Below are positions 1 through 14,336 of a DNA stretch of 14,336 nucleotides, in pieces. Every line of letters begins with the position of its first letter. Position 1 is the stretch's first letter. Under the pieces are notes generated by a model, which saw only the letters and a program-made list of their open reading frames with translations, was not told the DNA's origin and did not search any database. The stretch is from a virus, in the UHGV virus genome UHGV-1706348; one strand, given 5' to 3'. The translations under genes were made by a program, and so were the position numbers.

Positions 1-45
1 GATTGCCTCTTGTCTCGTGGGCTCGGAGATGTGTATAAGAGACAG
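1..45. other. Library adapter contamination (Nextera i7 side): tail of P7 (gat), 8-nt index TGCCTCTT, GTCTCGTGGGCTCGG, then the 19-nt Tn5 mosaic end AGATGTGTATAAGAGACAG
   Basis: Read directly: positions 12-45 are GTCTCGTGGGCTCGGAGATGTGTATAAGAGACAG, the Nextera transposase read-2 adapter; positions 4-11 (TGCCTCTT) fit an i7 index as it appears in the adapter (N711 from memory). Genomic sequence starts at 46. Confidence 0.9.
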
Positions 46-528
46 CTTTTCTTCCTCGGTAGCCATATCTAAATCGACAGCATCCTGCAGCGTGGCAATG
101 ATTTCACCTGCATATGCAATCTGCTCTTTCTTCTGAGACTCCGCCGCTCTGACAAGCGCATCACGCTCTGCATTCTCATCATTCACCCACGCATTTCCGT
201 TCCATTTCTGATAATCCCCCTCCGGGGAAATGGCTGTCACGTCTGGAGGTAATGCGCCAAGTTCAGAAATATAAATGGCTGCTCCCGTTTTCGTTTCGTA
301 GACAGTCTTTCCGCGATGATCTTCCATCAACTCCCATTTCATTTCATCTGCATTGAAAACGGCTGCATAACCAGCAGGAATATCAGGTGGTGCAATATCT
401 GTACTGTTTGCAGGCAGGCCAGTATACGGCGGAATATATGCATCACTTTCGCCAATAAACTCATTGGTTCCATCAAGTAAATTGAAAACGCGGATAGTTT
501 GTGCTTCTGCACTCATTCTGAAAGCCAT
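46..528 (-). CDS. tfa: Tail fiber assembly protein (chaperone), lambda Tfa-like; 3'-partial, truncated by contig end and adapter
   Basis: My translation from ATG at 528 reads [59 protein letters not shown]...[14 protein letters not shown], close to the lambda Tfa N-terminus as I recall it ([54 protein letters not shown]...). Start ATG overlaps the tail fiber stop by 1 nt (TAATG). Frame runs open to position 46, where adapter begins. Confidence 0.85.
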
Positions 529-3146
529 TATGCAAGCCTCACAATATAGTTAAATGCGATGTTTTTGACGGTGTTTTCGGTATTACCAGTAGCATTTACG
601 GTAATGGAATGCCCGTGTGAGCCAATAGCAACAGTGTGTGAATGTGCACCAATACCAACAGTATGGTTATGTGCTCCAATGTCGACTGTATGTGCATGAT
701 TGCCTGATGAACTTGTAGTCGTAGCACCTTTATCACTTCGCGGAACACCATAATCTGCACCGCCTGATTGCACGCTCACAGCAAAACCGACGGTATGTGT
801 ATGATTGCCAGAAGTATTGGTTGATTTTGTGCCGTGGTTAAACGTACTGACTGTTTTTGTCCCGTAATCAAATGAACTGGTCGTTTTCGTTCCTAAGTCC
901 GTATTTGACGCACTGGCGCTGTGAGTATGCGATTTAATCCCGTCCTGTTCCTGTGACAATACGGCACGCCCACTGGCGGGTTTGCCCTTGATTGTCCAGC
1001 CGCGCATATCAGGAATAACACCAGAAGGATAGGCAATAGCCAGTTTCGGATATGCAGCCTTATCAAACGTCTGCCCCTGCATGATCGCATAGCCTGCAGG
1101 TGGTGTATCTGATGGCCACGGCAGCGGAACACCTGGCGGAAACGCTTCAATATTTGCCGAGCCGTCAAATTTTACGCCGTTAATTGTCCTTGGCGTTTTC
1201 AGCTTTGTAGCTGTAGCCGCATTGCCGGACAGTTCGCCTGAAATACCGGCGCTGAAGGTTTGTTTCGCCGCCCATGTCTGAGCTTCGTCGATAATTGGCA
1301 CACGTCTTGTCGTGATCGTGCGGCTTCCCGGATTTCCTGAAATACGCACCATAAAAAAGCGGTAATTCGCTTTACTTACAGTGCTGCGCCATACATGCAT
1401 TGAGCGCCCCGTACCGGAATCATCACTCGGACCAACTGCGATGTTTATCAGGTTGCCATCAATGACGCCCCAGTCCATACCGTCGGGAATGTTGGTCATG
1501 TTATCAAGCCGAACGGTTATCAGACTGCCCGGCACAAAGTCGTGGGTCTGCCAGTCCAGGCTGGTGAGCTTTGCCACTGCACCGCCGATACCCAGATTCA
1601 GGGGAAGTGAATACGAGGTGTAGACTTCCCGCCATTCGCTCCACGAGCTGCCGGTATAGACGCGCTCAAACGTGCGACCTTTAAGGGTTGCACCTGTTCC
1701 GGCAGTTGTATAACGCTGCCATACGTTAACACCATCAAAGCGCCTCAACACTTCCAGAATACCGAGGACTGTCACGCCGTTTCCGTCCAGTATTGGACCG
1801 TTGGTCGCTTTACCTGTAACGCTGTAAATACCTGGTGAAGTCACATCATTCAAATCCCCGTCGTAATAACGACTCTCTGACTGATGACCGACTCTTAACC
1901 ACGGTTCCCACTGCGGATTTGATGCATCCCAGCTTGCCGCAAGGCAGCGGACATACATATTTCCACGGCGAGTGGTATAACGTTGCGTTCTTCCATAATT
2001 CCCGCCTTCGAGGATCTCAAGCGTCCCCTGAGCAAAGCCGCCTTCCTCTGGATAATTGCGTTCATATGAAGCTATAGCCGAGCTACTGTTACGCCATAAA
2101 CCAAGATGTTCGGCAGCTCCAAGCGTATTCAGGTCTATAGTCGTACTCAAAGGGCGGGTAGCTGATTGAGTGTGACGCCATACGCCCCATGGACCATCAG
2201 TACCATTCCACTTATTGGCGAGTTTACGCATGTATACATTGCCGTCTCTCGTGATAAAGCGTTGCGTGCCTGCAAAATTGCCGGCAGCAAAAACCTCAAG
2301 CACACCGACAGCATTATCTTCCGGGAAATTTTTCTCCAGTGTTGCGTTAGTTGAGGTAGCTTTAGACCAGCTCCCCAGATAAGCCTTAACTGGACCAAAT
2401 GTATTCAGATCAGCATCAACCGGCATTTCGCCGTTGTTTTTCATAAACGTCAGGCTGGTAACGCCAACATTGTCCAGAAAAGCTGATTTATCCTGGATAT
2501 CTGCACCGTTCTGATTTTTCGCCAGACGTGAATTTGCGTTGTCATTCGCAGCCTTGACCGCTTTTGGCGTTGCCGCCAGTTTTTCACTGGTGCTGTTTGT
2601 TGCGCTGCTTAACTGGGTAAAACCTTTTTCTGTCAGCGTGGCGTCAGGATGGCGGCGGGACTGCTCATGTTCTGCGATTTTGTCATCGACGTAATCCTGC
2701 GTCGCCATCACTGTGCTGGCATCAATACTCAGCTCAACGGACGCCACGTTACTGACAATAATAACCATGCGACAGGTCTGCGCACGCCCGGAGCCTTCAG
2801 CGAGTTCAGGCTTATAGCTTTCTGCCATGTTGGCGACCGCAATCAGTGTTCCGGCATCGTCATACAGACCAAGCTCACGCATCCAGAAGCCGCCCACTTC
2901 GGGCGGTACAACCAGTTCAGCCACGATATAGTTTTTATTCTTGTTATCCACGCTGACTTTATTCAGAGCGTGACGCCAGACCTCATGCACCAGTTTCGTC
3001 TGACCGGCATCCGGCACCGGCAATTTGCCATTACCGTCACCCACGGCCATTGCAGACAGGTTTACTTTTTTCCCGCCGGGGACAGTGGCGGCTGCCAGCT
3101 TTGCGGCTCCGGCAGTAGTGATAACGGTTTTAAATTTCGTGCTCAT
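528..3146 (-). CDS. H: Tail fiber protein (872 aa): P2 gpH-like N-terminal domain, triplicated shaft repeat, lambda Stf-like His-x-His C-terminal tip
   Basis: Complete ORF in the track. N-terminus [21 protein letters not shown]...[31 protein letters not shown] is P2 H-like; C-terminus ...[58 protein letters not shown] is lambda side-tail-fiber-like. Sits between the baseplate genes and tfa. Confidence 0.9.
597..932 (-). repeat. His-x-His motif repeats in the tail fiber C-terminal tip (aa 739-850), preceded by GTKT repeats
   Basis: Motifs [42 protein letters not shown] read from the translation. Coding repeats, not CRISPR. Confidence 0.6.
1617..2330 (-). repeat. Three diverged ~58-aa tandem protein repeats (~91-aa period) inside the tail fiber shaft (aa ~273-330, 364-422, 455-510)
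   Basis: Aligned by eye: [53 protein letters not shown] / [56 protein letters not shown] / [52 protein letters not shown]. Nucleotide identity between copies is only moderate, so the duplication is old. Confidence 0.6.
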
Positions 3147-3156
3147 TGTTTCTCAC

Positions 3157-3687
3157 TTATCCGGGATAAACAGTAATAACATCACCATCACAGACCACAC
3201 CGCCTGTATACAGACAGCCGGGAATGTCCTGGATAATGTTCAGACCGATAAGGTGGCGACTTGCGGGTTTGGCATCGGCAATCAGCCGTTCCATTTCCAG
3301 ATACATCTCCTCCGTGATGCCGCTTTCCAGTACGCCGATATCAAGGCGGAAGGTTCCGGGCGGGTCGTTTGTCTCCCACCATTCCTTTACGTGAATGAGA
3401 TAGCCGAGCGGCTCCACCACACGCCGGATTGCGCCGACAGTGCCTTTATGACAATGAATGAAATAGGCATCGCGGATAACGGCGCGTTTTGTCGCTTCCG
3501 GCCACTTTTCATCCCACCTGTCGACCGAAAACGCCCACGCCAGCCACGGCAGCAGATTTGCCGGACAGGAGTCCGGGTTCCACAGCTCACGAATACTGAC
3601 CGGCGTTTTTTCAATTTCCGCACAGGCTTTTGCGGCAGCGACTTCAAGCGGTGATGAGCCGGTCGGCAGCAGTCGCGAATCACTCAT
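3157..3687 (-). CDS. I: Baseplate assembly protein I (P2 gpI-like), 176 aa
   Basis: Complete ORF, same length as P2 gpI, positioned between J and H; start overlaps the J stop by 8 nt. Confidence 0.85.
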   Translation of the reverse strand: MSDSRLLPTGSSPLEVAAAKACAEIEKTPVSIRELWNPDSCPANLLPWLAWAFSVDRWDEKWPEATKRAVIRDAYFIHCHKGTVGAIRRVVEPLGYLIHVKEWWETNDPPGTFRLDIGVLESGITEEMYLEMERLIADAKPASRHLIGLNIIQDIPGCLYTGGVVCDGDVITVYPG

Positions 3688-4588
3688 CCGAGCCTCCGGT
3701 CACGACGCGGTATTCGGTACAGAAAGACGCCTGCGTACTGTTGAGCACGATGTCGGCCAGTGGTGCAGCCAGTTCGACACGCTGCACGCCTTCCACATGC
3801 AAAGCGGCATAAATGGCAGACAGACGGATGTCACGCCCCAGCCGGTGCTGTGCCGTGATATACGCTTCCAGTTTTTTCACGGCGGCAGCGCGAATGGGTT
3901 CGCTTTCGGGACCAGGGTAAAGGTAAAGCGTGGCGTTTATCTGGTATTCAACGATGGCGGCAGACTGCACAGTCACGCGGTCGGCCACCGGCCTGACATC
4001 CTCGCCATTAAGGGCGTTACGTACCACAGCCAGCAGGTCTTCGGATGCGACACCATTATTCTCACGTGACAGCACAGAGATGGTGACGCAGGCCGGAGAC
4101 GGACTGGTGACAGAGATATCCGCGACACGCCCGTCGGCACTGCGGCCATGATACTGATAGGCACCCACCGACCCGGCGACGCTTAAACCTTCAAACGCCT
4201 GCTGAATACGCAGACGATAATCGGTGTCAGATTCCATCACTGCCGGTGTCGGCGGAATGGTCGAATCATCTGCCGGGGTGATAATCAGGCGTGTGGTGTT
4301 GTAATTGGCACCAATCACATCAAGGTCATTACCGGCTGCACAGGCCAGCATCACCGCCCGTGCGGCCTCATTCACACGCTGACGCCAGATAAGCTCACGA
4401 TAAGCATTTTCCTCCAGCAGTTTAACGAGAGGCTCAGATTCCAGCGTCAGGGTACGGGCGACCGCCTCCTGCTGGTCTTCCGGGTAAAGGGAAATCAGTG
4501 TCGCCTTGCGTTCAGCGAGAATGGTTTCAAAGTCCAGCTCCTCGACCACATCCGGTGCGGGTAGCTGGTTCAGGTCGATAATCGGCAT
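3680..4588 (-). CDS. J: Baseplate assembly protein J (P2 gpJ-like), 302 aa
   Basis: Complete ORF beginning MPIIDLNQLPAPDVVEELDFETILAERKATLISLYPE..., same length as P2 gpJ, sits between W and I. Confidence 0.88.
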   Translation of the reverse strand: MPIIDLNQLPAPDVVEELDFETILAERKATLISLYPEDQQEAVARTLTLESEPLVKLLEENAYRELIWRQRVNEAARAVMLACAAGNDLDVIGANYNTTRLIITPADDSTIPPTPAVMESDTDYRLRIQQAFEGLSVAGSVGAYQYHGRSADGRVADISVTSPSPACVTISVLSRENNGVASEDLLAVVRNALNGEDVRPVADRVTVQSAAIVEYQINATLYLYPGPESEPIRAAAVKKLEAYITAQHRLGRDIRLSAIYAALHVEGVQRVELAAPLADIVLNSTQASFCTEYRVVTGGSDE

Positions 4589-4592
4589 GGTT

Positions 4593-4940
4593 TCAACTCA
4601 CAGGGATGGTTAATGAAAGTGGCTGGCCGGTGTCGTTGTGCTGGCCGGTTAACGTGACCGTCATTCGCCCGTCAAAACTGCGCTCAGTGATGACGGATGA
4701 CAGGGTGACGCGGGGTTCCCATTTCAGCACCGCCATGTAACAGGCGACCTTAATCTGCAACTCAAGCGCCGGGGTCTGCGGCTGGTCAATCATTGACGCC
4801 AGCAACGAGCCGTAATCACGACGCATCACCCGTGAGCCGACCGGCGTGCGCAGGATATCGCCGATACTCTGGCTGATATGCTCAAGGTCAGTGACAGTCA
4901 GGCCATCACTGCGATTCATTCCGAGATAACGCGCTGTCAT
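4593..4940 (-). CDS. W: Baseplate assembly protein W (P2 gpW / T4 gp25-like), 115 aa
   Basis: Complete ORF of P2 gpW size; ATG overlaps the V stop as ATGA (4937-4940). Confidence 0.85.
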   Translation of the reverse strand: MTARYLGMNRSDGLTVTDLEHISQSIGDILRTPVGSRVMRRDYGSLLASMIDQPQTPALELQIKVACYMAVLKWEPRVTLSSVITERSFDGRMTVTLTGQHNDTGQPLSLTIPVS

Positions 4941-5572
4941 AAAGGCCTCCCGGTTGTGCCGCCGCTGTCGCCGGGGTGTTTATGGGTATGCAGTACCTTA
5001 CCGTTTGATGAGAGTTCACCGCCGGTATGTTCAATGTTGCCGCGCATCGTCCCGCCCTTCTGCACTTCCAGCGTGCCGGTGATCAGCTTGTTTGTGCAGA
5101 CCACCTCCGGCGTGTCCAGAGTGACACGGGTTGATGCTTTCACCGTGACCACCGGCACCGTGGCAGTAACAGAATCAGAAGCCGTCACGCTGGCCGTTTT
5201 AATTCCGCTTACCGTGAGTGCACTGGTTTCAGGTTCATACTCAATCACCGCCCCGTCAGGGAAACGGATATGCAGGGCATCCGCCGACGCAGACGGCGCG
5301 GGGTTATCACCGGAATAAATCCCCGGCAGAACAAACGCCGTGTCGAGTTCACCGCCCACGGACAGAATCAGCACCTGTTCCCCCACGGAAGGTGCCCACC
5401 ATGTGCGCGAACGTCCGGCGCGATGGGTCAGCCACTGAAGCCAGTCGGTGCACATGCCGCCGGTCTGCACACGGCAGCGACCGGCGTTAAGGTCGGTTTC
5501 AACGATAATGCCGGTGCGGATCATGTTGCGCAGTGCGCGCGCGAGTTCCTGAATATTTGCGAGAGTGTTCAT
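4937..5572 (-). CDS. V: Baseplate spike / assembly protein V (P2 gpV-like), 211 aa
   Basis: Complete ORF of P2 gpV size, first gene after the S-V intergenic gap; C-terminal part is Gly/His-rich (...KVLHTHKHPGDSGGTTGRPL). Confidence 0.85.
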   Translation of the reverse strand: MNTLANIQELARALRNMIRTGIIVETDLNAGRCRVQTGGMCTDWLQWLTHRAGRSRTWWAPSVGEQVLILSVGGELDTAFVLPGIYSGDNPAPSASADALHIRFPDGAVIEYEPETSALTVSGIKTASVTASDSVTATVPVVTVKASTRVTLDTPEVVCTNKLITGTLEVQKGGTMRGNIEHTGGELSSNGKVLHTHKHPGDSGGTTGRPL

Positions 5573-5584
5573 AACGGGAAGGAT

Positions 5585-5606
5585 GCCGCCGGGTCATACC
5601 GGCGGC
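5585..5606. promoter_or_regulatory. Perfect 8-bp GC-rich inverted repeat (GCCGCCGG-gtcata-CCGGCGGC) in the 66-bp S-V intergenic region
   Basis: Read directly from the sequence. No U-tract follows on either strand, so it is not a canonical intrinsic terminator. In P2 this position lies upstream of V, where a late promoter is expected. Confidence 0.5.
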
Positions 5607-5638
5607 AATGTGACGATGAGGTGTCGGGAATGGCACAA

Positions 5639-6091
5639 CTAACGGTCGAGATGAGCCAGGATAATCTCTTCAATCATCTGCACATCCTCACCGGTAAAGC
5701 CGAGCAGAGGACGCGCCGGATAATCAATTTTCTTACCGTCTTTCCGGGTTTCTTCCGACAGACCGAACTGATGCACGCTGGCGATTTTCGGTGACTTCCC
5801 GCCGTAAAATTCCATTGATGCCTGTTCCGGGCTGGCGCGGATATGCAAAAAGCGACTGGTAATAAGTTTCGCAAACATTTTTCGCTTAACACGACCGGTC
5901 TTTTTTTTGGCGCTCTGCTGCTGGCGTGGCGCGTAGGGTGTGCCGTCCGGGGCTTTCTGTGCCATCACCCGACGCTGCTGACTCTGTCGCAGACGTTTTG
6001 CCAGTTCGGCACTCAGTCGCCGACGCCCTGACGGTGACAGCGATTCAGTCAGTCCGGTCAGCCGGTCTTCAAAACGCTTAAACTCATTCAT
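5639..6091 (-). CDS. S: Tail completion / virion morphogenesis protein S (P2 gpS-like), 150 aa
   Basis: Complete ORF of P2 gpS size and position; start overlaps the R stop by 8 nt. Confidence 0.8.
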   Translation of the reverse strand: MNEFKRFEDRLTGLTESLSPSGRRRLSAELAKRLRQSQQRRVMAQKAPDGTPYAPRQQQSAKKKTGRVKRKMFAKLITSRFLHIRASPEQASMEFYGGKSPKIASVHQFGLSEETRKDGKKIDYPARPLLGFTGEDVQMIEEIILAHLDR

Positions 6092-6551
6092 CCCACTTGC
6101 TCACCAGTTCGCCATTGATATACAGCTCCATCGGGCGGGTGACCGGCTCCGGCGGCGGAGGTTCCGGGATATTCTTCACATGCAGTGCGCCGTCCACCTC
6201 ACTGACCAGCGTGCGCTCGGTCAGCATCAGGCTGATGCTGATATCAAAGCTGCTGTCATTGTTGATGTCTGCATAAAACGTGAAGCCCTTTTTCTGGCCT
6301 TCGTCGGTGGTCATGATGTCGGGCTGATTTTCCCGCAGCCACGCCAGCACCGGCACGATGAGCAGGTCAAAATCACCGGTAAAGTCGGTCACAATGACAT
6401 TGAGCGTGTAACGCTTTTCGAATGACAGCGACGTCGCCAGTGTGGAGGCAATACTCCCGTTATCCACGAATATCCGCAGCATCTCGGGGCTGGTTTTCAG
6501 CACCGTGACGGCATCAGTCAGTGCCCTGCGCAGGCTGTCGGGTTTGAGCAT
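6084..6551 (-). CDS. R: Tail completion protein R (P2 gpR-like), 155 aa
   Basis: Complete ORF of P2 gpR size, immediately after the lysis cassette. Confidence 0.8.
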   Translation of the reverse strand: MLKPDSLRRALTDAVTVLKTSPEMLRIFVDNGSIASTLATSLSFEKRYTLNVIVTDFTGDFDLLIVPVLAWLRENQPDIMTTDEGQKKGFTFYADINNDSSFDISISLMLTERTLVSEVDGALHVKNIPEPPPPEPVTRPMELYINGELVSKWDE

Positions 6552-6804
6552 CGTTTTCGTCCTGACAGTGTTTAATCATTTTTACCTGGCTGGCACAACG
6601 TGCCAGCGCGTTCTCAAGCTGCCGGATATCGGCACTTAAATCGCCGTTCGTCTGCGGGTCACTGCCCGGCATCGGGCAAAGACTCACTTTCGGGCAGGCG
6701 TTGTGGACAATCACTGGCGTCGGTGCAGGCCGGACGCTGGTGCAACCGGCGCACAGCATCAGGCAGGTCAGCGCCGTACCAGCGGCGAAAATCTTCGTTT
6801 TCAT
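6514..6804 (-). CDS. lysC: Outer-membrane spanin lipoprotein (Rz1-like; P2 LysC-like), 96 aa, out of frame with and overlapping lysB
   Basis: Translation MKTKIFAAGTALTCLMLCAGCTSVRPAPTPVIVHNACPKVSLCPMPGSDP...: signal peptide, lipobox-like LCAGC, Pro-rich mature region. Overlaps the 3' end of lysB (6659-6804) and the 5' end of R. The exact start is uncertain. Confidence 0.7.
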   Translation of the reverse strand: MKTKIFAAGTALTCLMLCAGCTSVRPAPTPVIVHNACPKVSLCPMPGSDPQTNGDLSADIRQLENALARCASQVKMIKHCQDENDAQTRQPAQGTD

Positions 6805-7084
6805 TCAGTAACCTCGTGATGGTTTTCTCGCGCTGTGCTTCACGCTTCGCCGCGTTCTCCAGTTCCTGACGCAGTGCCACCTGCGCCAGCTCGTTTTTGT
6901 CTGCTCTGGTGAGGGCAACATGAAGCTGATTTTTCAGCATGGTGATGGTCGTCTGCTGCCCGCTGGCGACGTTGTTCGCCCTGTCCAGCGAGGTGCGCAG
7001 GCTGGCGTTTTCATGCTTCGCCAGAAACAGACCGGCCACCGCCAGTGATAACAACACAACCAGCACAATCATCAGCTTTGACAT
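6659..7084 (-). CDS. lysB: Inner-membrane spanin (Rz-like; P2 LysB-like), 141 aa
   Basis: N-terminal transmembrane segment MSKLMIVLVVLLSLAVAGLFLA followed by a charged, probably coiled-coil region (QLHVALTRADKNELAQVALRQELENAAKREAQREKTITRLLNENEDFRRW); start overlaps the lysA stop. Confidence 0.8.
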   Translation of the reverse strand: MSKLMIVLVVLLSLAVAGLFLAKHENASLRTSLDRANNVASGQQTTITMLKNQLHVALTRADKNELAQVALRQELENAAKREAQREKTITRLLNENEDFRRWYGADLPDAVRRLHQRPACTDASDCPQRLPESESLPDAGQ

Positions 7085-7497
7085 GGTTCCCGCCCCTCAA
7101 AACGCTGACGACAGGCCGTGCGTATCAACCGGAAGAACACCGACGCCACGAGGTAAATCAGCGCGGTAAAAATCCACCCGGCAGCGACCAGCGAGATAAA
7201 CGTCGCCACCATCACCACCAGAGCCGCCGCCCGTCTGCGCCACGGCACCGGCTGCAAAAACAGCGACGCGACAATCTTCACGGCCAGCGATTCCGGCGGC
7301 AGCTCCCGCCCGTAGCGTTCCAGCACATACTCAGTGGCATACACGCCGACACCACCGGCAACCACACAGATAACCGTCGCCAGAATCGCCCAGGCGGCGA
7401 CAAAACTGACGGCCACGCTCTGCGGGTAAATCAGGGACAGTGCCAGCATCAGCGCCAGCGACACGTTCAGCATCAGTGAAAGGGATAATTTCTTCAT
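7072..7497 (-). CDS. lysA: Lysis timing membrane protein LysA-like, 141 aa, multi-pass hydrophobic
   Basis: Highly hydrophobic translation with several predicted TM segments, located between K and lysB as in P2. Confidence 0.7.
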   Translation of the reverse strand: MKKLSLSLMLNVSLALMLALSLIYPQSVAVSFVAAWAILATVICVVAGGVGVYATEYVLERYGRELPPESLAVKIVASLFLQPVPWRRRAAALVVMVATFISLVAAGWIFTALIYLVASVFFRLIRTACRQRFEGREPCQS

Positions 7498-7511
7498 GGT
7501 GTTTACTCCGT

Positions 7512-8009
7512 TTAAGCCGGTACGCCGCCAGCGGTACGCCAGACGGTGACCAGTTTTTCCAGTGAATGCTCACGCTGACCGTAACCGGCACCCGGCAGGG
7601 ACGCCCAGATATTGCGACAGCGTGAAATGGCGCGCTCAATGCGTCCCGCCCGGATGTCATCCAGTGCACCGCGTTCGCGGATCAACTGAATGGCGAGCCT
7701 GTCCTGTGACAACGGACTGAAATCCGGCAGGGCAAGCTGTTTGCGGTAATGCGGCCAGAACAGGTAAAGCTGCTGATAGCGCCCGGAGGCCGTGGATTTT
7801 TCACCGCGACGGTTAAACACCTTCGCCGGTCGGCCATGCGCGAACGGGTGGTCACTGTAGTCAGTGAAAATTTCCGGCTTCCCGTCCAGTCCGGTGACTA
7901 TCACGTCATAGCCCCGGTTTTTCGTCAGCGGATGATTCGCCGTCCCTTCGGACACGGCCAGCATGTCGAGAAAGGCGGCGATATTCTGATGCGTGTTAAT
8001 TACCGGCAT
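7512..8009 (-). CDS. K: Endolysin, lambda R-like (lytic transglycosylase family), 165 aa
   Basis: Translation MPVINTHQNIAAFLDMLAVSEGT...RGYDVIVTG...FTDYSDHP...GRYQ...FSPLSQD...RCRNIWASLPGAGYGQREH aligns by eye with lambda R as I recall it (AFLDMLAWSEGT...HGYDVIVGG...FTDYSDHP...GRYQ...FSPKSQD...RCSNIWASLPGAGYGQFEH). Start overlaps the Y stop (TAATG). Confidence 0.9.
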   Translation of the reverse strand: MPVINTHQNIAAFLDMLAVSEGTANHPLTKNRGYDVIVTGLDGKPEIFTDYSDHPFAHGRPAKVFNRRGEKSTASGRYQQLYLFWPHYRKQLALPDFSPLSQDRLAIQLIRERGALDDIRAGRIERAISRCRNIWASLPGAGYGQREHSLEKLVTVWRTAGGVPA

Positions 8010-8290
8010 TACTGTTTCCCCCTGCCCTTAAAGCGGCGCTGAATGGCAATCTCAATCACCTGATAACCGGCGATACCCAGCATGGAGCCGATGCCGCACA
8101 CCGCAGGCAGTGACAGGTCAGGAAACTGCACCAGAACAACACCGGCAACCATCGAGACAAAACCACCGAGCAACATGCGCCCGATAAACAGACGCGGGGT
8201 GATGGGTTCACCACCGGCAAGCACCTTGCCGACAACAATCAGCACCCCAATCATGAAAAGCGACAGGACGCTTTTTTCTTCTGCTGTCAT
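8009..8290 (-). CDS. Y: Holin (P2 gpY-like), 93 aa
   Basis: Small protein with hydrophobic TM segments and a charged C-terminus (RRFKGRGKQ), immediately upstream of the endolysin. Confidence 0.8.
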   Translation of the reverse strand: MTAEEKSVLSLFMIGVLIVVGKVLAGGEPITPRLFIGRMLLGGFVSMVAGVVLVQFPDLSLPAVCGIGSMLGIAGYQVIEIAIQRRFKGRGKQ

Positions 8291-8293
8291 GCG

Positions 8294-8497
8294 TTACTCC
8301 CACAGATTGACAGTTTCAGCCACGGGCGCGGTCTGAACGTCGGGCAGTTCGACGGCGGTGCCGTGTGGCAGCACCGCACCCAGTTCAGCCAGTCCCGGAT
8401 TTGCGGCGAGCACGGTCTCAACCACGCCCTCAGTGCGCCCGTAATACCGGACACAGATGGCGTCGAGCGTGTCGCCCTGTAGCGCAAAGGTCTTCAT
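8294..8497 (-). CDS. X: Tail protein X (P2 gpX-like, LysM-like), 67 aa
   Basis: I place the start at the internal ATG (MKTFALQGDTLDAICVRYYGRTEGVVETVLAANPGLAELGAVLPHGTAVELPDVQTAPVAETVNLWE), not at the 90-aa track ORF, because this gives the 67 aa I recall for P2 X and a 1-nt stop/start overlap with L (TGATG). Confidence 0.72.
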   Translation of the reverse strand: MKTFALQGDTLDAICVRYYGRTEGVVETVLAANPGLAELGAVLPHGTAVELPDVQTAPVAETVNLWE

Positions 8498-9006
8498 CAG
8501 ATTTGACTCACGATGCAGCGCGGCTTGTCCTGGATACGCGCCACCGCCCAGCGCATATCCCGCCACAGCTCATCAATAGTGCTGTCAATGCTGTCGGCCT
8601 TCTTGTCGCCTTTCGCACTGGCATCCACGCCGCGATAACGCTCATAAAGCGACGCGGTCGCCATCGCACACACGGCGCGCTCGTAGTAAAAAACCTTGAT
8701 GCTTTCACCGTCGATATCGTCCGCCGGGACGTCAGCCAGACGCGTAAAACCGGCGGCAATTTTCTGTTCGCGGTACTCGTACAGCTCCGCATTCGTCTCC
8801 GCCATGCCTGACTTGATGGCCTCACGCAGACGGGCGGGGGCGACGGTCTGCTCAAGGCGCATACGTTCCCGGACGCGCTTCGGGTCGATATCGGGAAAAA
8901 AGAACGTGTTTTTAATCACCGGCTCGTCGCCTGCCGGTTGCGGGATGACCACCGTACCCTCACCGGACACGGGAGCCTCCTTTCGCGGAATAATCAGCGT
9001 CATCAT
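8497..9006 (-). CDS. L: Head completion / stabilisation protein L (P2 gpL-like), ~169-170 aa
   Basis: Start placed at the ATGATG at 9006/9003 (MMTLIIPRKEAPVSGEG...), preceded by GAGG; the 189-aa track ORF extends upstream into untranslated spacer. Confidence 0.8.
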   Translation of the reverse strand: MMTLIIPRKEAPVSGEGTVVIPQPAGDEPVIKNTFFFPDIDPKRVRERMRLEQTVAPARLREAIKSGMAETNAELYEYREQKIAAGFTRLADVPADDIDGESIKVFYYERAVCAMATASLYERYRGVDASAKGDKKADSIDSTIDELWRDMRWAVARIQDKPRCIVSQI

Positions 9007-9105
9007 GACTACCTCAGAAAAGTCGGGCGGTGGACGCCGGTACAGTGTCAGGTGATTCACCCACACTGACCGGCGTGCCGCCCTGGCGCGGGGCGCATTC
9101 GGTTG

Positions 9106-9849
9106 TTAACTGGCTTTCTTTTTCGGGCGTCCACGTTTTGCCGGTGTCGCACTCCGGGTCTTACGCGGGGCACGGGTGGCCGCTTTGGGCTGCGGCTCCG
9201 GCTTCGGTTTCAGCTCCCGCTCCAGTCGTTCAATCTCTTTTTTGACGCCTGCCTGACAGTCGAGCTGTGTCGCACGTTGCAGGTGCGCCAGCGCACCGGC
9301 GGCATCACCAGCGTCACGCAGAAACAGACCGGTGATTTTGTGCAGCTTTGCGCGCACTTCATCAGGCATGTCAGCCGTGGCGGTCAGTTCAAGGGTGTCC
9401 GTCAGCAGGCGGGGATTCACAGACTCACCGGCAGCGTGAGCGCGCATGGCCGCAAGCGCCACCTCCTCGGTGAACATGTACGGCGGGGTGCGGCGGTGTT
9501 TACCCGGCATGGTCAGACCGTACTTCAGGGCATAACGGGCAATCTCCAGCGCACCGGCAATATCGCCGGTATCCAGACGCCACAGCATGACCGTCATCAG
9601 AATGTCATCCTGTGCACCTTTGCCCTGCTCCAGCACGCCGTTCACCCACGGCAACCAGAACGGCAGCAGTTCGCGTTTTTTCGCGGCCTTCAGCTCTTTT
9701 GAATAAATCGCTTTCAGTGTGCGCTGGTCTGCGGCGAGCTTAACCAGCATCTGCTCATAGACAGTTGCATGTCGCAGCGGGGCGGCTTCCCGCTGCGCGG
9801 TCATCGCTGCCGAGACCCGCATCATGTGGCGCTGTGCGGGACTCGTCAT
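9106..9849 (-). CDS. M: Terminase endonuclease (small) subunit M (P2 gpM-like), 247 aa
   Basis: Complete ORF of P2 gpM size, with a basic Lys/Arg/Pro-rich C-terminal tail (...KPKPEPQPKAATRAPRKTRSATPAKRGRPKKKAS), located right after the capsid gene. Confidence 0.85.
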   Translation of the reverse strand: MTSPAQRHMMRVSAAMTAQREAAPLRHATVYEQMLVKLAADQRTLKAIYSKELKAAKKRELLPFWLPWVNGVLEQGKGAQDDILMTVMLWRLDTGDIAGALEIARYALKYGLTMPGKHRRTPPYMFTEEVALAAMRAHAAGESVNPRLLTDTLELTATADMPDEVRAKLHKITGLFLRDAGDAAGALAHLQRATQLDCQAGVKKEIERLERELKPKPEPQPKAATRAPRKTRSATPAKRGRPKKKAS

Positions 9850-9852
9850 CGG

Positions 9853-10926
9853 TTACGCTCCCGGCTCTGCGGTCGCCCTGGCCGGTGTGGAGAAATCACC
9901 GACCTTAATTTTTTCCACCAGGCAACCGGCGGCGTAGTCTTCCACCACGTAATCAATATTCATTGACTCGTAGTTCTCCACGCGGTCGAGTTTCGGGTTT
10001 TCCTCAATCACGCGGCGATGGCTGTCATCCATGTAGTAGATGGACAGGTTTTCCAGCTTCGTGATGAGCATCGCATCCGCCGGGAAGTACGGGACGCGTA
10101 CCGCTGGCAGGTTGCCGATGCGTTTCTGGCTGATGATGACGTCAGCGGCCAGCATCTCGCTGTTGTCCTGCTCCTTGTTGACGATGGGGAAATACTTGTC
10201 CGCCAGTAGCTGACGCCCCACAATCACCACAAGGTCAGGGTCTTCCTGATACCACGGTTCAATCAGGTTGTTGGTCGCATCCATCACCAGTGCATCAAGG
10301 CTGGCATAATCACCGCCCTTACCCACGCGGATAACCTCAGAGGTGGTGCGGCCTTCCTCGTCAGTGACCTTGCTCATCACGCGCGCCGGGGCTTCATTGC
10401 GGTATTTCTGCAGCCAGCCGACCGCCACATCCTGCAACATCGGATTGCTGCTGCGGTCAGAGGTTTCGGCACGCTTCACGCCGTTAAAACCGGCCATGAT
10501 GAAATCAAGGGACTGGCGTTTGATAATGGCGTTACGGATACGGAGCTGGAAATCCTGATAACGCGCCCACAGGTCCAGCGTTTTGTAGCGGATATAAAAA
10601 TCGAAGTTAATCTGGTCGCATTCGTACTTGTTTGACGCCAGCTTCGAGAAGTCCTTCGGCTGACGTTCGGTGCCACCGGCGGTGTCGGTGGTGCTGGCGA
10701 TGGAGCCGGTGACACCGATGCCAATTTTTTCCCCTTTCATTTCGCTGACCGGCACAATGTTGATGCGGGTCAGAAAGTCAGAGGACTCCTGCATGGTGTT
10801 CATCAGGGTCTGGGTGACCGACGGTTCAACGGTGAATTTTTTCGACACATCACCGGCGTCGATGCCGTTCAGTTCGGCAACACGGGACAGATAGGCATTA
10901 AATTTAAAACGGGTTTCCTGGCGCAT
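9853..10926 (-). CDS. N: Major capsid protein N (P2 gpN-like), 357 aa
   Basis: Complete ORF of P2 gpN size, between scaffold and small terminase; AGGA Shine-Dalgarno 6 nt upstream of the ATG. Confidence 0.9.
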   Translation of the reverse strand: MRQETRFKFNAYLSRVAELNGIDAGDVSKKFTVEPSVTQTLMNTMQESSDFLTRINIVPVSEMKGEKIGIGVTGSIASTTDTAGGTERQPKDFSKLASNKYECDQINFDFYIRYKTLDLWARYQDFQLRIRNAIIKRQSLDFIMAGFNGVKRAETSDRSSNPMLQDVAVGWLQKYRNEAPARVMSKVTDEEGRTTSEVIRVGKGGDYASLDALVMDATNNLIEPWYQEDPDLVVIVGRQLLADKYFPIVNKEQDNSEMLAADVIISQKRIGNLPAVRVPYFPADAMLITKLENLSIYYMDDSHRRVIEENPKLDRVENYESMNIDYVVEDYAAGCLVEKIKVGDFSTPARATAEPGA

Positions 10927-10984
10927 ATTTGTTCCTGAAATTAAGGGTTAATCGTGAAGGTTTTCCCGGACTGACTGACGCCGG

Positions 10985-11839
10985 TCAGCAGTTCGTCATC
11001 AGGGCGTCTCCGCCACCGCCGGTGGCCTTGCTGCGGCGCTGCTGGGTCAGACTTTCGGTGTGGTCGAGACTGTTTTTCAGGCGGGTGAATGCCTGGCTGG
11101 TTTCATCCGCCCTGTCAGTCACATCCTGCTTAAGTGCGGAAAAGGCGGTTTCCATCTCAGCGAGGCGCTGCTCAGTGGCGCTCAGTTTTTCCTGCACATG
11201 TTCAGCAACAGCGGTCACCGCTTCATGCACATCATTCAGACGGGCGTCATCACTGGCCTGTTTGCGACCAAAAATGGATTTCACCTTTTCGGTCAGGGCG
11301 GTGAACACGGTTTCAGGCAGGTCTTCAAATTCCAGCTCAACGGGCGTTGCCACTGAAATCAGGTTTTCAGGGCTTAATTTGAAGCGGTTCAGGGGGTTGT
11401 GTTTTGCCTTGCGGCAGAATTCCAGGTATTCCGTGCCGAGGCTCGCCGGGTCGTCGGTGACGGCCAGACCCACCAGATAACATTTGCCGGTATTGGCAAA
11501 GTTCGGCTGAATTTCCATTGAGGTGTAGACCTTCTGCGCGGCCTTGTTCATCGCGATAAGGTCATCGGTCGGGGTGATTTTCGCAAACAGCGCCCATTTG
11601 CCTTTCAGCGCCGAATCGTCGTCAATCTTTTCGGCCTTCAGTTCGACCACATCGCCATAACGTTTAAAAATACCGTCAGGCAGGATGCCGCGCAGATGTT
11701 CCAGGTTAATGCGGCAACCATAGACACGCGGGTCAAAGGTTTCGGCCATTTCCTGAATATCCTGCGCACTGATGACACGCCCGTCACAGGTGTCACCCTC
11801 AACGCCGATACGAAAGAATTTTGAGACTTTTTTTGCCAT
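10985..11839 (-). CDS. O: Capsid scaffolding protein O (P2 gpO-like), 284 aa plus initiator Met
   Basis: Start placed at the internal ATG giving MAKKVSKFFRIGVEGDTCDGRVISAQDIQEMAETFDPRV..., not the 306-aa track ORF; C-terminal half is helical and charged (...SATEQRLAEMETAFSALKQDVTDRADETSQAFTRLKNS...). Confidence 0.85.
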   Translation of the reverse strand: MAKKVSKFFRIGVEGDTCDGRVISAQDIQEMAETFDPRVYGCRINLEHLRGILPDGIFKRYGDVVELKAEKIDDDSALKGKWALFAKITPTDDLIAMNKAAQKVYTSMEIQPNFANTGKCYLVGLAVTDDPASLGTEYLEFCRKAKHNPLNRFKLSPENLISVATPVELEFEDLPETVFTALTEKVKSIFGRKQASDDARLNDVHEAVTAVAEHVQEKLSATEQRLAEMETAFSALKQDVTDRADETSQAFTRLKNSLDHTESLTQQRRSKATGGGGDALMTNC

Positions 11840-12012
11840 TGTCAGGAGTCCTGAATAGTGATTAGAGGAGTCACATGTCGGCATCAGTTTCCCGACGATG
11901 CGCATCCTCCGCCATCAGTCCCGGATGGCTTATCACTGACACAACAGCACCTTAGCGAATCGCGGGGCGCGACTCAGTAGCCTTGCCGTGTATTCATCAC
12001 GGCGAGGTATTC
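11840..12012. promoter_or_regulatory. Divergent intergenic region between O (-) and P (+); expected site of the two divergent late promoters of a P2-like phage
   Basis: 173-bp non-coding gap between divergent operons. P2 has Ogr-dependent late promoters here with a TGT-N12-ACA element near -55; I find no perfect copy, only TGG-N12-ACA at 11926-11943. A 6-bp inverted repeat GCCGTG-tattcat-CACGGC (11985-12003) abuts the P Shine-Dalgarno (GAGG 12004-12007). Confidence 0.45.
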
Positions 12013-13785
12013 ATGACCATCACCACAGACACCACTCTTTTACACGACCCGCGTCGTCAGGCGGCGCTGCTGTACTGGCAGGGGTTTTCCGTGCCGCAGA
12101 TTGCCGCCATGTTGCAGATGAAACGTCCGACGGTGCAGAGCTGGAAACAGCGCGACGGCTGGGACAGTGTTGCCCCCATCAGCCGTGTCGAAATGAGCCT
12201 GGAAGCGCGGCTGACCCAGCTCATCATCAAACCGCAGAAAACCGGCGGTGACTTCAAGGAAATTGACCTGCTGGGACGCCAGATTGAACGACTGGCACGG
12301 GTCAACCGCTACAGCCAGACCGGCAACGAGGCAGACCTTAATCCGAACGTCGCTAACCGCAACAAAGGCGGGCGGCGCAAACCGAAAAAGAATTTTTTCA
12401 GTGACGAGGCCATCGAAAAGCTGGAGCAGATTTTCTTTGAGCAGTCTTTCGAATATCAGTTGCACTGGTATCGCGCCGGGCTTGAGCACCGCATCCGCGA
12501 TATCCTGAAATCCCGCCAGATTGGCGCGACGTTTTATTTTTCCCGCGAGGCGCTGCTGCGTGCCCTGAAAACCGGTCATAACCAGATTTTTCTGTCGGCC
12601 AGTAAAACGCAGGCGTATGTGTTCCGCGAATACATCATCGCCTTTGCCCGTCTGGTTGACGTTGACCTGACCGGTGACCCGATTGTCCTGGGCAATAACG
12701 GCGCAAAACTGATTTTTCTCGGCACCAACTCCAACACCGCGCAGAGCCATAACGGCGACCTGTACGTCGACGAGATTTTCTGGATCCCGAATTTTCAGGT
12801 ACTGCGTAAGGTGGCATCAGGTATGGCCTCACAGAGTCACCTGCGCTCGACCTATTTCTCCACCCCGTCCACGCTGGCGCACGACGCCTACCCGTTCTGG
12901 TCAGGTGAACTGTTCAACCGGGGACGCGCCAGCGCCGCCGAACGCGTGGAAATCGACGTCAGTCATAACGCCCTTGCCGGTGGGCTTCTCTGTGCGGACG
13001 GCCAGTGGCGGCAGATTGTCACCATTGAGGACGCCCTGAAAGGTGGCTGCACGCTGTTCGACATTGAGCAGCTCAAACGTGAAAACAGCGCCGACGATTT
13101 TAAAAACCTGTTCATGTGTGAATTTGTTGACGACAAGGCGTCAGTGTTCCCGTTCGAGGAGCTGCAACGCTGCATGGTCGACACGCTGGAAGAATGGGAA
13201 GACTATGCGCCGTTTGCCGCGAATCCGTTCGGCTCCCGCCCGGTATGGATTGGTTACGACCCGTCACACCGTGGCGACAGTGCCGGATGCGTGGTGCTGG
13301 CACCGCCGGTGGTGGCCGGTGGCAAATTCAGAATACTTGAGCGTCACCAGTGGAAAGGCATGGACTTTGCCACTCAGGCGGAATCCATCCGCAAACTCAC
13401 CGAAAAATACAACGTCGAATACATCGGTATTGATGCCACCGGCCTCGGTGTCGGCGTGTTCCAGCTCGTGCGCTCGTTCTATCCCGCCGCGCGCGATATC
13501 CGCTACACACCGGAAATGAAAACCGCAATGGTGCTCAAGGCAAAAGACGTTATCCGCCGTGGCTGTCTGGAATATGACGTCAGCGCCACCGACATCACCA
13601 GCTCGTTTATGGCTATCCGCAAGACCATGACCAGCAGCGGACGCAGCGCCACCTATGAGGCCAGCCGCAGCGAGGAAGCCAGCCACGCCGACCTCGCCTG
13701 GGCGACCATGCACGCCCTGTTAAATGAGCCACTCACCGCCGGTATCAGCACCCCGCTGACATCCACCATTCTGGAGTTTTACTGA
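12013..13785 (+). CDS. P: Terminase ATPase (large) subunit P (P2 gpP-like), 590 aa
   Basis: Start placed at ATG 12013 (MTITTDTTLLHDPRRQAALLYWQGF...) with GAGG upstream, not the TTG-initiated 600-aa track ORF. Stop TGA (13783-13785) overlaps the Q ATG by 1 nt. Confidence 0.9.
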   Translation: MTITTDTTLLHDPRRQAALLYWQGFSVPQIAAMLQMKRPTVQSWKQRDGWDSVAPISRVEMSLEARLTQLIIKPQKTGGDFKEIDLLGRQIERLARVNRYSQTGNEADLNPNVANRNKGGRRKPKKNFFSDEAIEKLEQIFFEQSFEYQLHWYRAGLEHRIRDILKSRQIGATFYFSREALLRALKTGHNQIFLSASKTQAYVFREYIIAFARLVDVDLTGDPIVLGNNGAKLIFLGTNSNTAQSHNGDLYVDEIFWIPNFQVLRKVASGMASQSHLRSTYFSTPSTLAHDAYPFWSGELFNRGRASAAERVEIDVSHNALAGGLLCADGQWRQIVTIEDALKGGCTLFDIEQLKRENSADDFKNLFMCEFVDDKASVFPFEELQRCMVDTLEEWEDYAPFAANPFGSRPVWIGYDPSHRGDSAGCVVLAPPVVAGGKFRILERHQWKGMDFATQAESIRKLTEKYNVEYIGIDATGLGVGVFQLVRSFYPAARDIRYTPEMKTAMVLKAKDVIRRGCLEYDVSATDITSSFMAIRKTMTSSGRSATYEASRSEEASHADLAWATMHALLNEPLTAGISTPLTSTILEFY

Positions 13786-14291
13786 TGAGTAAGAAAAAAG
13801 GGAAAACACCGCAACCTGCGGCAAAAAAAATGACCGCCAGCGCCCCGAAAATGGAGGCATTCACCTTTGGTGAGCCGGTGCCGGTACTCGACCGCCGTGA
13901 CATTCTGGATTACGTCGAGTGCATCAGTAACGGCAGATGGTATGAGCCGCCGGTCAGCTTTACCGGTCTGGCGAAAAGCCTGCGTGCTGCCGTGCATCAC
14001 AGCTCGCCGATTTACGTCAAACGCAATATTCTGGCCTCGACATTTATCCCGCATCCGTGGCTTTCCCAGCAGGATTTCAGCCGCTTTGTGCTTGATTTTC
14101 TGGTGTTCGGTAATGCGTTTCTGGAAAAGCGTTACAGCACCACCGGTAAGGTCATCAGACTGGAAACCTCACCGGCAAAATATACCCGCCGTGGCGTGGA
14201 GGAGGATGTTTACTGGTGGGTGCCGTCCTTCAACGAGCCGACAGCCTTCGCGCCCGGCTCCGTGTTTCACCTGCTGGAGCCGGATATCAAT
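13785..14291 (+). CDS. Q: Portal protein Q (P2 gpQ-like), 3'-partial (first ~169 aa), truncated by contig end and adapter
   Basis: Translation MSKKKGKTPQPAAKKMTASAPKMEAFTFGEPVPVLDRRDILDYVECISNGRWYEPPVSFTG...; downstream of and coupled to P as in P2. The last residues of the track ORF (LSLIHI-stop) are encoded by adapter, not genome. Confidence 0.85.
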
Positions 14292-14336
14292 CTGTCTCTT
14301 ATACACATCTGACGCTGCCGACGAATAGAGAGGTGT
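14292..14336. other. Library adapter contamination (Nextera i5 side, reverse complement): mosaic end CTGTCTCTTATACACATCT, GACGCTGCCGACGA, 8-nt index ATAGAGAG, GTGT
   Basis: Read directly: 14292-14324 is CTGTCTCTTATACACATCTGACGCTGCCGACGA, the reverse complement of the Nextera read-1 adapter; 14325-14332 (ATAGAGAG) is the reverse complement of CTCTCTAT (i5 index 502 from memory); GTGT begins the P5 tail. Confidence 0.9.

Follow-up and report, generated by a model that had tools for sequence, protein, structure and literature searches.

Positions 1-45 of the window (the whole stretch of DNA analysed here, 14,336 nt) are a synthetic Illumina Nextera library adapter and not phage sequence. They represent a sequencing artefact without biology. 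The same artefact is present at the 3' end, and the adapter finding is to be extended there. The DNA between the two adapters is genuine: it holds the late genes of a P2-like E. coli prophage and is cut within a gene on each side (Table 1).

Adapter sequence at the two ends

A comparison of the Tn5ME-B oligo GTCTCGTGGGCTCGGAGATGTGTATAAGAGACAG with window positions 12-45 gave 0 mismatches. None of 200 dinucleotide-preserving shuffles gave a match to this sequence, even when up to three mismatches were allowed, and the adapter match at 1-45 cannot be chance. By scripted string comparison, positions 1-45 are the final 45 nt of the composite string CAAGCAGAAGACGGCATACGAGAT-TGCCTCTT-GTCTCGTGGGCTCGGAGATGTGTATAAGAGACAG, and the outer 21 nt of P7 are all that is missing from the left remnant relative to the complete oligo. 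The i7 index TGCCTCTT of primer Ad2.11 corresponds to Nextera index N711.

These strings are well documented as reagents. The Tn5ME-B and Tn5ME-A oligo sequences are printed by Picelli et al. 2014 (PMC4248319), and the Ad2.11_AAGAGGCA primer is given as CAAGCAGAAGACGGCATACGAGAT-TGCCTCTT-GTCTCGTGGGCTCGGAGATGT (PMC10440357). The window's GAT-TGCCTCTT-GTCTCG... is that catalogue primer, and the junction string recurs in 19 published papers. The Tn5ME-B string, its Read-1 partner and the word Nextera appear jointly in 1,773. The claim of the sequence-only reading, that 1-45 consist of adapter and index, is thus borne out by an exact match to oligos described in both sources. Its coordinates for the left end stand, but the description was incomplete: the first three bases, which are the P7 tail, had been left unassigned and the adapter at 14292-14336 went unmentioned.

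The right end mirrors the left. A search of the window for the mosaic end also matched exactly at 14292-14310, on the minus strand. The last 45 nt, which read CTGTCTCTTATACACATCTGACGCTGCCGACGA-ATAGAGAG-GTGT on the plus strand, are by scripted comparison the exact reverse complement of the Read-1 adapter, an i5 index and the P5 tail; missing from this remnant relative to the complete oligo are the outer 25 nt of P5 only. The sequence ...GATCTACAC-CTCTCTAT-TCGTCGGCAGCGTC is the Illumina index i5 S502 primer (PMC11921620).

Taken from left to right, the layout of the window is (P7 tail)-i7-ME-insert (46..14291)-ME-i5-(P5 tail). Both ends are base-for-base identical to the Illumina Nextera / Nextera XT dual-index adapters and lie in the orientation of the Tn5 transferred strand. 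The AGACAG-3' of each mosaic end abuts the insert and points inward, which is the geometry of Tn5 strand transfer. The mosaic ends at 27-45 and 14292-14310 consequently form a perfect 19-bp terminal inverted repeat that flanks the insert, and a repeat search of the window found a window-spanning terminal inverted repeat (I1, 22 nt, 95% complementary).

Table 1. Adapter parts and phage features of the 14,336-nt window
Feature	Position	Strand	Basis
P7 flow-cell tail GAT (last 3 nt, ...ACGAGAT)	1..3	+	exact suffix of the full i7 primer string
i7 index TGCCTCTT, sequenced as AAGAGGCA, primer Ad2.11	4..11	+	literature primer and string match
Tn5ME-B / Nextera Read-2 transposase adapter, 34 nt, GTCTCGTGGGCTCGGAGATGTGTATAAGAGACAG	12..45	+	exact match
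Tn5 mosaic end, 19 nt, 3' AGACAG abutting the insert	27..45	+	last 19 bases of Tn5ME-B
Insert, late-gene block of P2-like (Peduovirus) E. coli prophage	46..14291	both	identity and gene content
tfa, tail fibre assembly gene (P2 gene G type, Pfam Caudo_TAP), 161 of 192 codons, 3' end missing	46..528	-	
Portal gene (P2 gene Q type), 169 of 344 codons	13785..14291	+	native continuation in six loci
Tn5ME-A / Nextera Read-1 transposase adapter, 33 nt, TCGTCGGCAGCGTCAGATGTGTATAAGAGACAG on minus strand	14292..14324	-	exact match; PMC4248319
Mosaic end (right)	14292..14310	-	inner part of Tn5ME-A
i5 index CTCTCTAT on minus strand (ATAGAGAG on plus strand), S502	14325..14332	-	primer in PMC11921620
P5 flow-cell tail ACAC on minus strand (last 4 nt)	14333..14336	-	string match

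Phage DNA between the adapters

The insert carries on its minus strand, in this order, tfa(G)', H, I, J, W, V, S, R, lysC/B/A, lysozyme, holin, X, L, M, N and O, and on its plus strand P (terminase ATPase) and Q' (portal). Annotated relatives show that the minus-strand products include a tail fibre of 872 aa, the small terminase, the major capsid protein and the scaffold. The order is that of the bacteriophage P2 late region (Q P O N M L X Y K lysA lysB lysC R S V W J I H G), the Pfam families correspond to those of P2 gene by gene, and the capsid, terminase, baseplate and lysis genes are of the P2 family. Peduovirus P2 is 97% identical to the window over 1192-14292. Unlike in P2, however, the distal part of the tail fibre together with tfa (46-1191) is of another type, which is common to P24A7b and some E. 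coli prophages, and Q and G are truncated by the artefact.

By megablast, at least 80% of the window is present at ~98% identity in 846 of 5,426 complete E. coli genomes, and all alignments listed among these 846 genomes span 46..14292. The median number of matching places per matching genome is two. The best matches among phage records are Peduovirus genomes, at 96.6-97.3% identity. An independent NCBI assembly (GCA_040341295.1, contig ABTCZM010000002.1, locus L027) is 100% identical to 46-13146, with 0 mismatches in 13,101 nt, the extent of this alignment being bounded solely by the amount of DNA retrieved. No adapter 11-mers (Nextera, TruSeq or IS50) are found inside 46-14291. Internal adapter joins or a chimeric assembly were considered and are ruled out, as these 11-mers are absent and the insert is colinear with native prophages.

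Where does phage sequence stop? Homology to native genomes ends at 46 and at 14291/2 in every comparison. On the left, native sequence reads ...CAGTGTGTCAGGCTTAA up to the junction and CTTTTCTTCC... after it, whereas the window reads ...GTGTATAAGAGACAG and then the same CTTTTCTTCC...; identity is 100% from 46 on, but before 46 it falls to 13 of 45 positions in an ungapped comparison, near the 25% chance level. On the right, ...GATATCAATC is followed by AGGAGCTG... in all relatives and by TGTCTCTT... in the window, with an ungapped identity of 12/45 past the junction. Base 14292 (C) is by chance common to the native sequence and the mosaic end, so that BLAST alignments end at 14292 and not at 14291. 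The adapter is absent at the homologous position from native, independently assembled genomes, their alignments ending at 46 and 14291/2. The identity of the adapter, its exact boundaries and the native continuation elsewhere are established.

The left break removes the final 96 nt of tfa; the right break follows codon 169 of the portal gene, which has 344 codons. Natural phage DNA ends were also considered as the origin of these breaks and are ruled out, because both breaks are intragenic and the sequence runs on past them in all relatives examined. What 46 and 14291 mark are places where Tn5 cut library molecules, not natural DNA ends.

The tfa gene begins with a start codon at 528-526 that overlaps the stop of the 872-aa fibre gene. 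In its native form (loci L001, L002 and L027) it has 192 codons, or 579 nt including the stop, and the window copy therefore lacks the last 31 codons and the stop. Precisely this part is supplied by L027, which continues past the left break with 96 native bases representing 31 codons plus stop. A complete 192-aa tfa is found in 8 of the 8 loci shown that have an identical tail fibre, and no adapter is present on the contigs carrying the identical tail-fibre protein, among the 8 shown of 15. In the window, by comparison, the frame runs into 15 adapter-encoded codons and off the window end without a stop. The gene belongs to the Caudo_TAP family by a score above the gathering cut-off and by its position directly downstream of the tail fibre gene: against PF02413 the window tfa scores 84.3 bits (cut-off 22.1) and covers profile positions 1-104 of 131, versus 137.1 bits and 131 of 131 positions for the native 192-aa protein.

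It had been proposed from the sequence alone that the assembly, and not biology, truncates tfa at 46, and that features called across 1-45 are artefactual. The native continuation in L027, the complete gene in all eight loci and the Caudo_TAP coverage (104 versus 131) uphold the former, and the run of the frame through 15 adapter codons with no stop upholds the latter. Strictly, Tn5 cut a single library fragment at 46, and assembly did not proceed past that point. One detail can mislead. The adapter-encoded tail reads EK-LSLIHIS where the native protein reads EK-LSLTHWK (window 37-54; tfa residues 160-167), and the L-S-L-x-H common to both is there by chance. Since it is shared, protein alignments place the truncation 3-5 residues too late.

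The portal gene is affected in a parallel way. The listed open reading frame 13785..14312 (175 aa) is a chimera, in which the adapter supplies the residues LSLIHI and an in-frame TGA that acts as a false stop; native continuation past the break is shown in six loci. No Pfam family was matched by the chimeric 175-aa frame at the default threshold.

The relatives also differ from one another at sites in or near this region. The S/V intergenic site (5573-5638) is empty in the window and in L027; in P24A7b and in loci L025, L026 and L029 it holds a gene of 261 aa on the opposite strand, with no Pfam match. Identity to L025, L026 and L029 changes from 99.8% (46-5572) to 97.5-97.7% (5637-12272), and this switch at the S/V site suggests a recombination breakpoint. 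Outside the window's left end, in loci L025-L032, which have the identical tail fibre, tfa and the tail sheath gene are separated by a pair of genes for an AAA_15 ATPase and a DUF4435 protein, about 1 kb past tfa (L027 14228-16330, for example). This domain pair is that of the PARIS (AriA/AriB) anti-phage system, and the genes may represent that system in a known P2 hotspot. Outside the right end, beyond the portal gene (locus positions ~5800-7773), loci L033-L038 have contents that differ in every relative: GmrSD_N plus HEPN, a retron Ec48-type RT pair, AAA_15/AAA_21 ATPases, or a ParB_N-like gene. The post-portal region appears to be a second variable cargo site, and the window ends before reaching it.

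Adapter copies in public collections

How widespread is the 45-nt sequence? It has no match in the 5,426 complete E. coli genomes. Exact copies of 1-45 in adapter-free assemblies of related phages, which had been put forward at the outset as evidence that would speak against an adapter, were found in none of the collections searched.

Matches do occur in 44 GenBank phage records, with hosts that include Bacillus, Streptococcus, Listeria, Staphylococcus, Acinetobacter and Pseudomonas. The 34-nt part is 100% identical in these records and the 8-nt index part is variable. Among the 40 records listed, about half have the match within ~120 nt of the record end and the rest have it internally; the 3' adapter behaves in the same way as the 5' adapter across GenBank phage records. 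In IMG/VR the exact 45-mer is found in 22 contigs (23 copies), 0-28 nt from an end, all pointing inward and each followed by a different downstream sequence. None of these 22 contigs is similar to the P2-like insert.

The species-representative bacterial genomes give the largest sample, with the exact 45-mer in at least 120 contigs. The titles listed are mostly of MAGs, e.g. Rhizobium, Methylobacterium, Chromatiales, Clostridia, Collinsella, Prevotellaceae and Myxococcaceae, and there is also a Streptomyces isolate. Nearly all copies (124/126) face inward from a position no more than 30 nt from an end, each of the 126 continues into a distinct 20-mer, and the bases on the outer side continue P7 in 101 of the 103 cases where this can be tested. 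Adapter of 45-51 nt was kept in 121/126 copies and of exactly 45 nt in 21/126, in a search with a 45-mer query to which remnants shorter than 45 nt are invisible. The clustering at 45-51 nt hints at an assembler graph rule.

Such a distribution marks the sequence as a reagent, not as part of a genome. The window resembles the publicly available adapter-contaminated contigs (MAGs, IMG/VR contigs and GenBank phages), where the same 45-mer sits near ends, points inward and lies beside unrelated DNA. It is unlike them in that both ends are affected, by one adapter of each type, with exactly 45 nt of each.

Peduovirus P22H1 (L039, LR595870.1 / NC_049386.1), a close relative represented by a public reference genome, has the 33-nt Nextera Read-1 adapter at 1297-1329, inside the annotated terminase ATPase coding sequence. 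It sits there in a 36-nt in-frame insertion, and the coding sequence has 602 aa, compared with 590 aa in the window and in every relative examined. Adapter also lies under annotated coding sequences in several other phage records, e.g. SPFM13, vB_EcoM_G4507 and BK070041.1. The IMG/VR contig L004 (IMGVR_UViG_3300045988_000945) carries the same i7 adapter at both ends (4-48 and 11727-11771), with the same 20-mer inward of each adapter on opposite strands, an arrangement that resembles an inverted-duplicate (hairpin-like) assembly artefact.

Origin and consequences of the adapter ends

How did both ends of the window come to carry adapter? Very probably, reads from a Nextera (Tn5 tagmentation) Illumina library were assembled without adapter trimming, and the window is one complete contig of that assembly. 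The outermost library fragment at each contig end would have been shorter than the read length. A read would then cross the Tn5 junction and continue through the mosaic end, the sequencing-primer site and the 8-nt index as far as the first P7 or P5 bases, and the assembler may have retained these adapter bases as tips. At the left end Read 1 would have read through into the i7 side, and at the right end Read 2 into the i5 side. An assembler with good coverage normally clips adapter tips and extends, and an extra condition is therefore needed: extension may have stopped at both cuts because of low coverage, or because of a graph branch from a diverging second P2-like prophage. We infer that untrimmed short reads were assembled, that no reads span the junctions, and why extension stalled.

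Two properties of the window lie outside this short-read model: both remnants are exactly 45 nt, and the total of 14,336 nt equals 14 x 1024. The symmetry and the length could come from an assembler k-mer rule, from post-processing or from in-silico construction. They are the grounds for supposing that a fixed-length slice of a real genome was given its adapter ends in silico, by addition or overwriting, either during processing or deliberately as a control. Such an origin is very unlikely, as the index pair, the partial P7 and P5 tails and the orientation form a real read-through pattern and remnants of 45 nt arise naturally in public assemblies (the 21 bacterial copies above). The order P7-i7-ME-insert-ME-i5-P5 is also that of a complete Nextera library molecule, and with no internal adapter joins in the insert the window might be read as one physical 14,246-bp tagmentation product sequenced end to end (by long reads or synthetic long reads), with the outer P7 and P5 clipped. 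This is likewise very unlikely. Chance alone gives a short-read assembly one adapter of each kind in about half of cases, ordinary SPAdes/metaWRAP assemblies commonly contain contigs that end in 45-51 nt of the same adapter, and the lack of mismatches to L027 is ordinary for polished short-read contigs; the clipping of both primers to 45 nt, moreover, has no explanation if the product was a single molecule. Were it one, positions 1-45 and 14292-14336 would still be synthetic adapter without biology.

Could the 19-bp inverted repeat instead mark a natural or engineered transposon of the Tn5/IS50 type, i.e. a 14-kb mobile element or an EZ-Tn5 insertion? The terminal inverted repeat I1 does span the whole window, and the IS50 / Tn5 ends (OE and IE) are 19 bp like the mosaic end, the same length as the terminal repeat in the window. 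The mosaic end was engineered from the IS50 ends. The 19-mer in the window is nevertheless the synthetic mosaic end, with 3 mismatches to OE and 4 to IE. The ends are also inverted relative to those of a cargo-bearing transposon: AGACAG-3' abuts the 14 kb on both sides, which makes the 14 kb target DNA between two insertions and not cargo. On their outer flanks are an Illumina primer site, an index and P7 or P5; a transposase is absent, and P2 prophages without such ends are colinear with the interior. The chance that a transposon is involved is negligible, and a Tn5/IS50 element or mobile-element inverted repeat is refuted by sequence, orientation and flanks.

The adapter finding matters for data hygiene only. 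If the left end is left unmasked, the tfa protein appears without its last 31 residues and with a false 15-residue tail; at the right end, the first half of the portal gene gives rise to a seemingly complete 175-aa open reading frame. Unmasked ends also leave a 19-bp inverted repeat that can be mistaken for transposon ends, and they produce spurious nucleotide matches to unrelated phages and bacteria with the same contamination. Both 45-nt ends should be masked or trimmed ahead of annotation of this P2-like late-gene block, and the positions where the contig starts and stops carry no conclusion.
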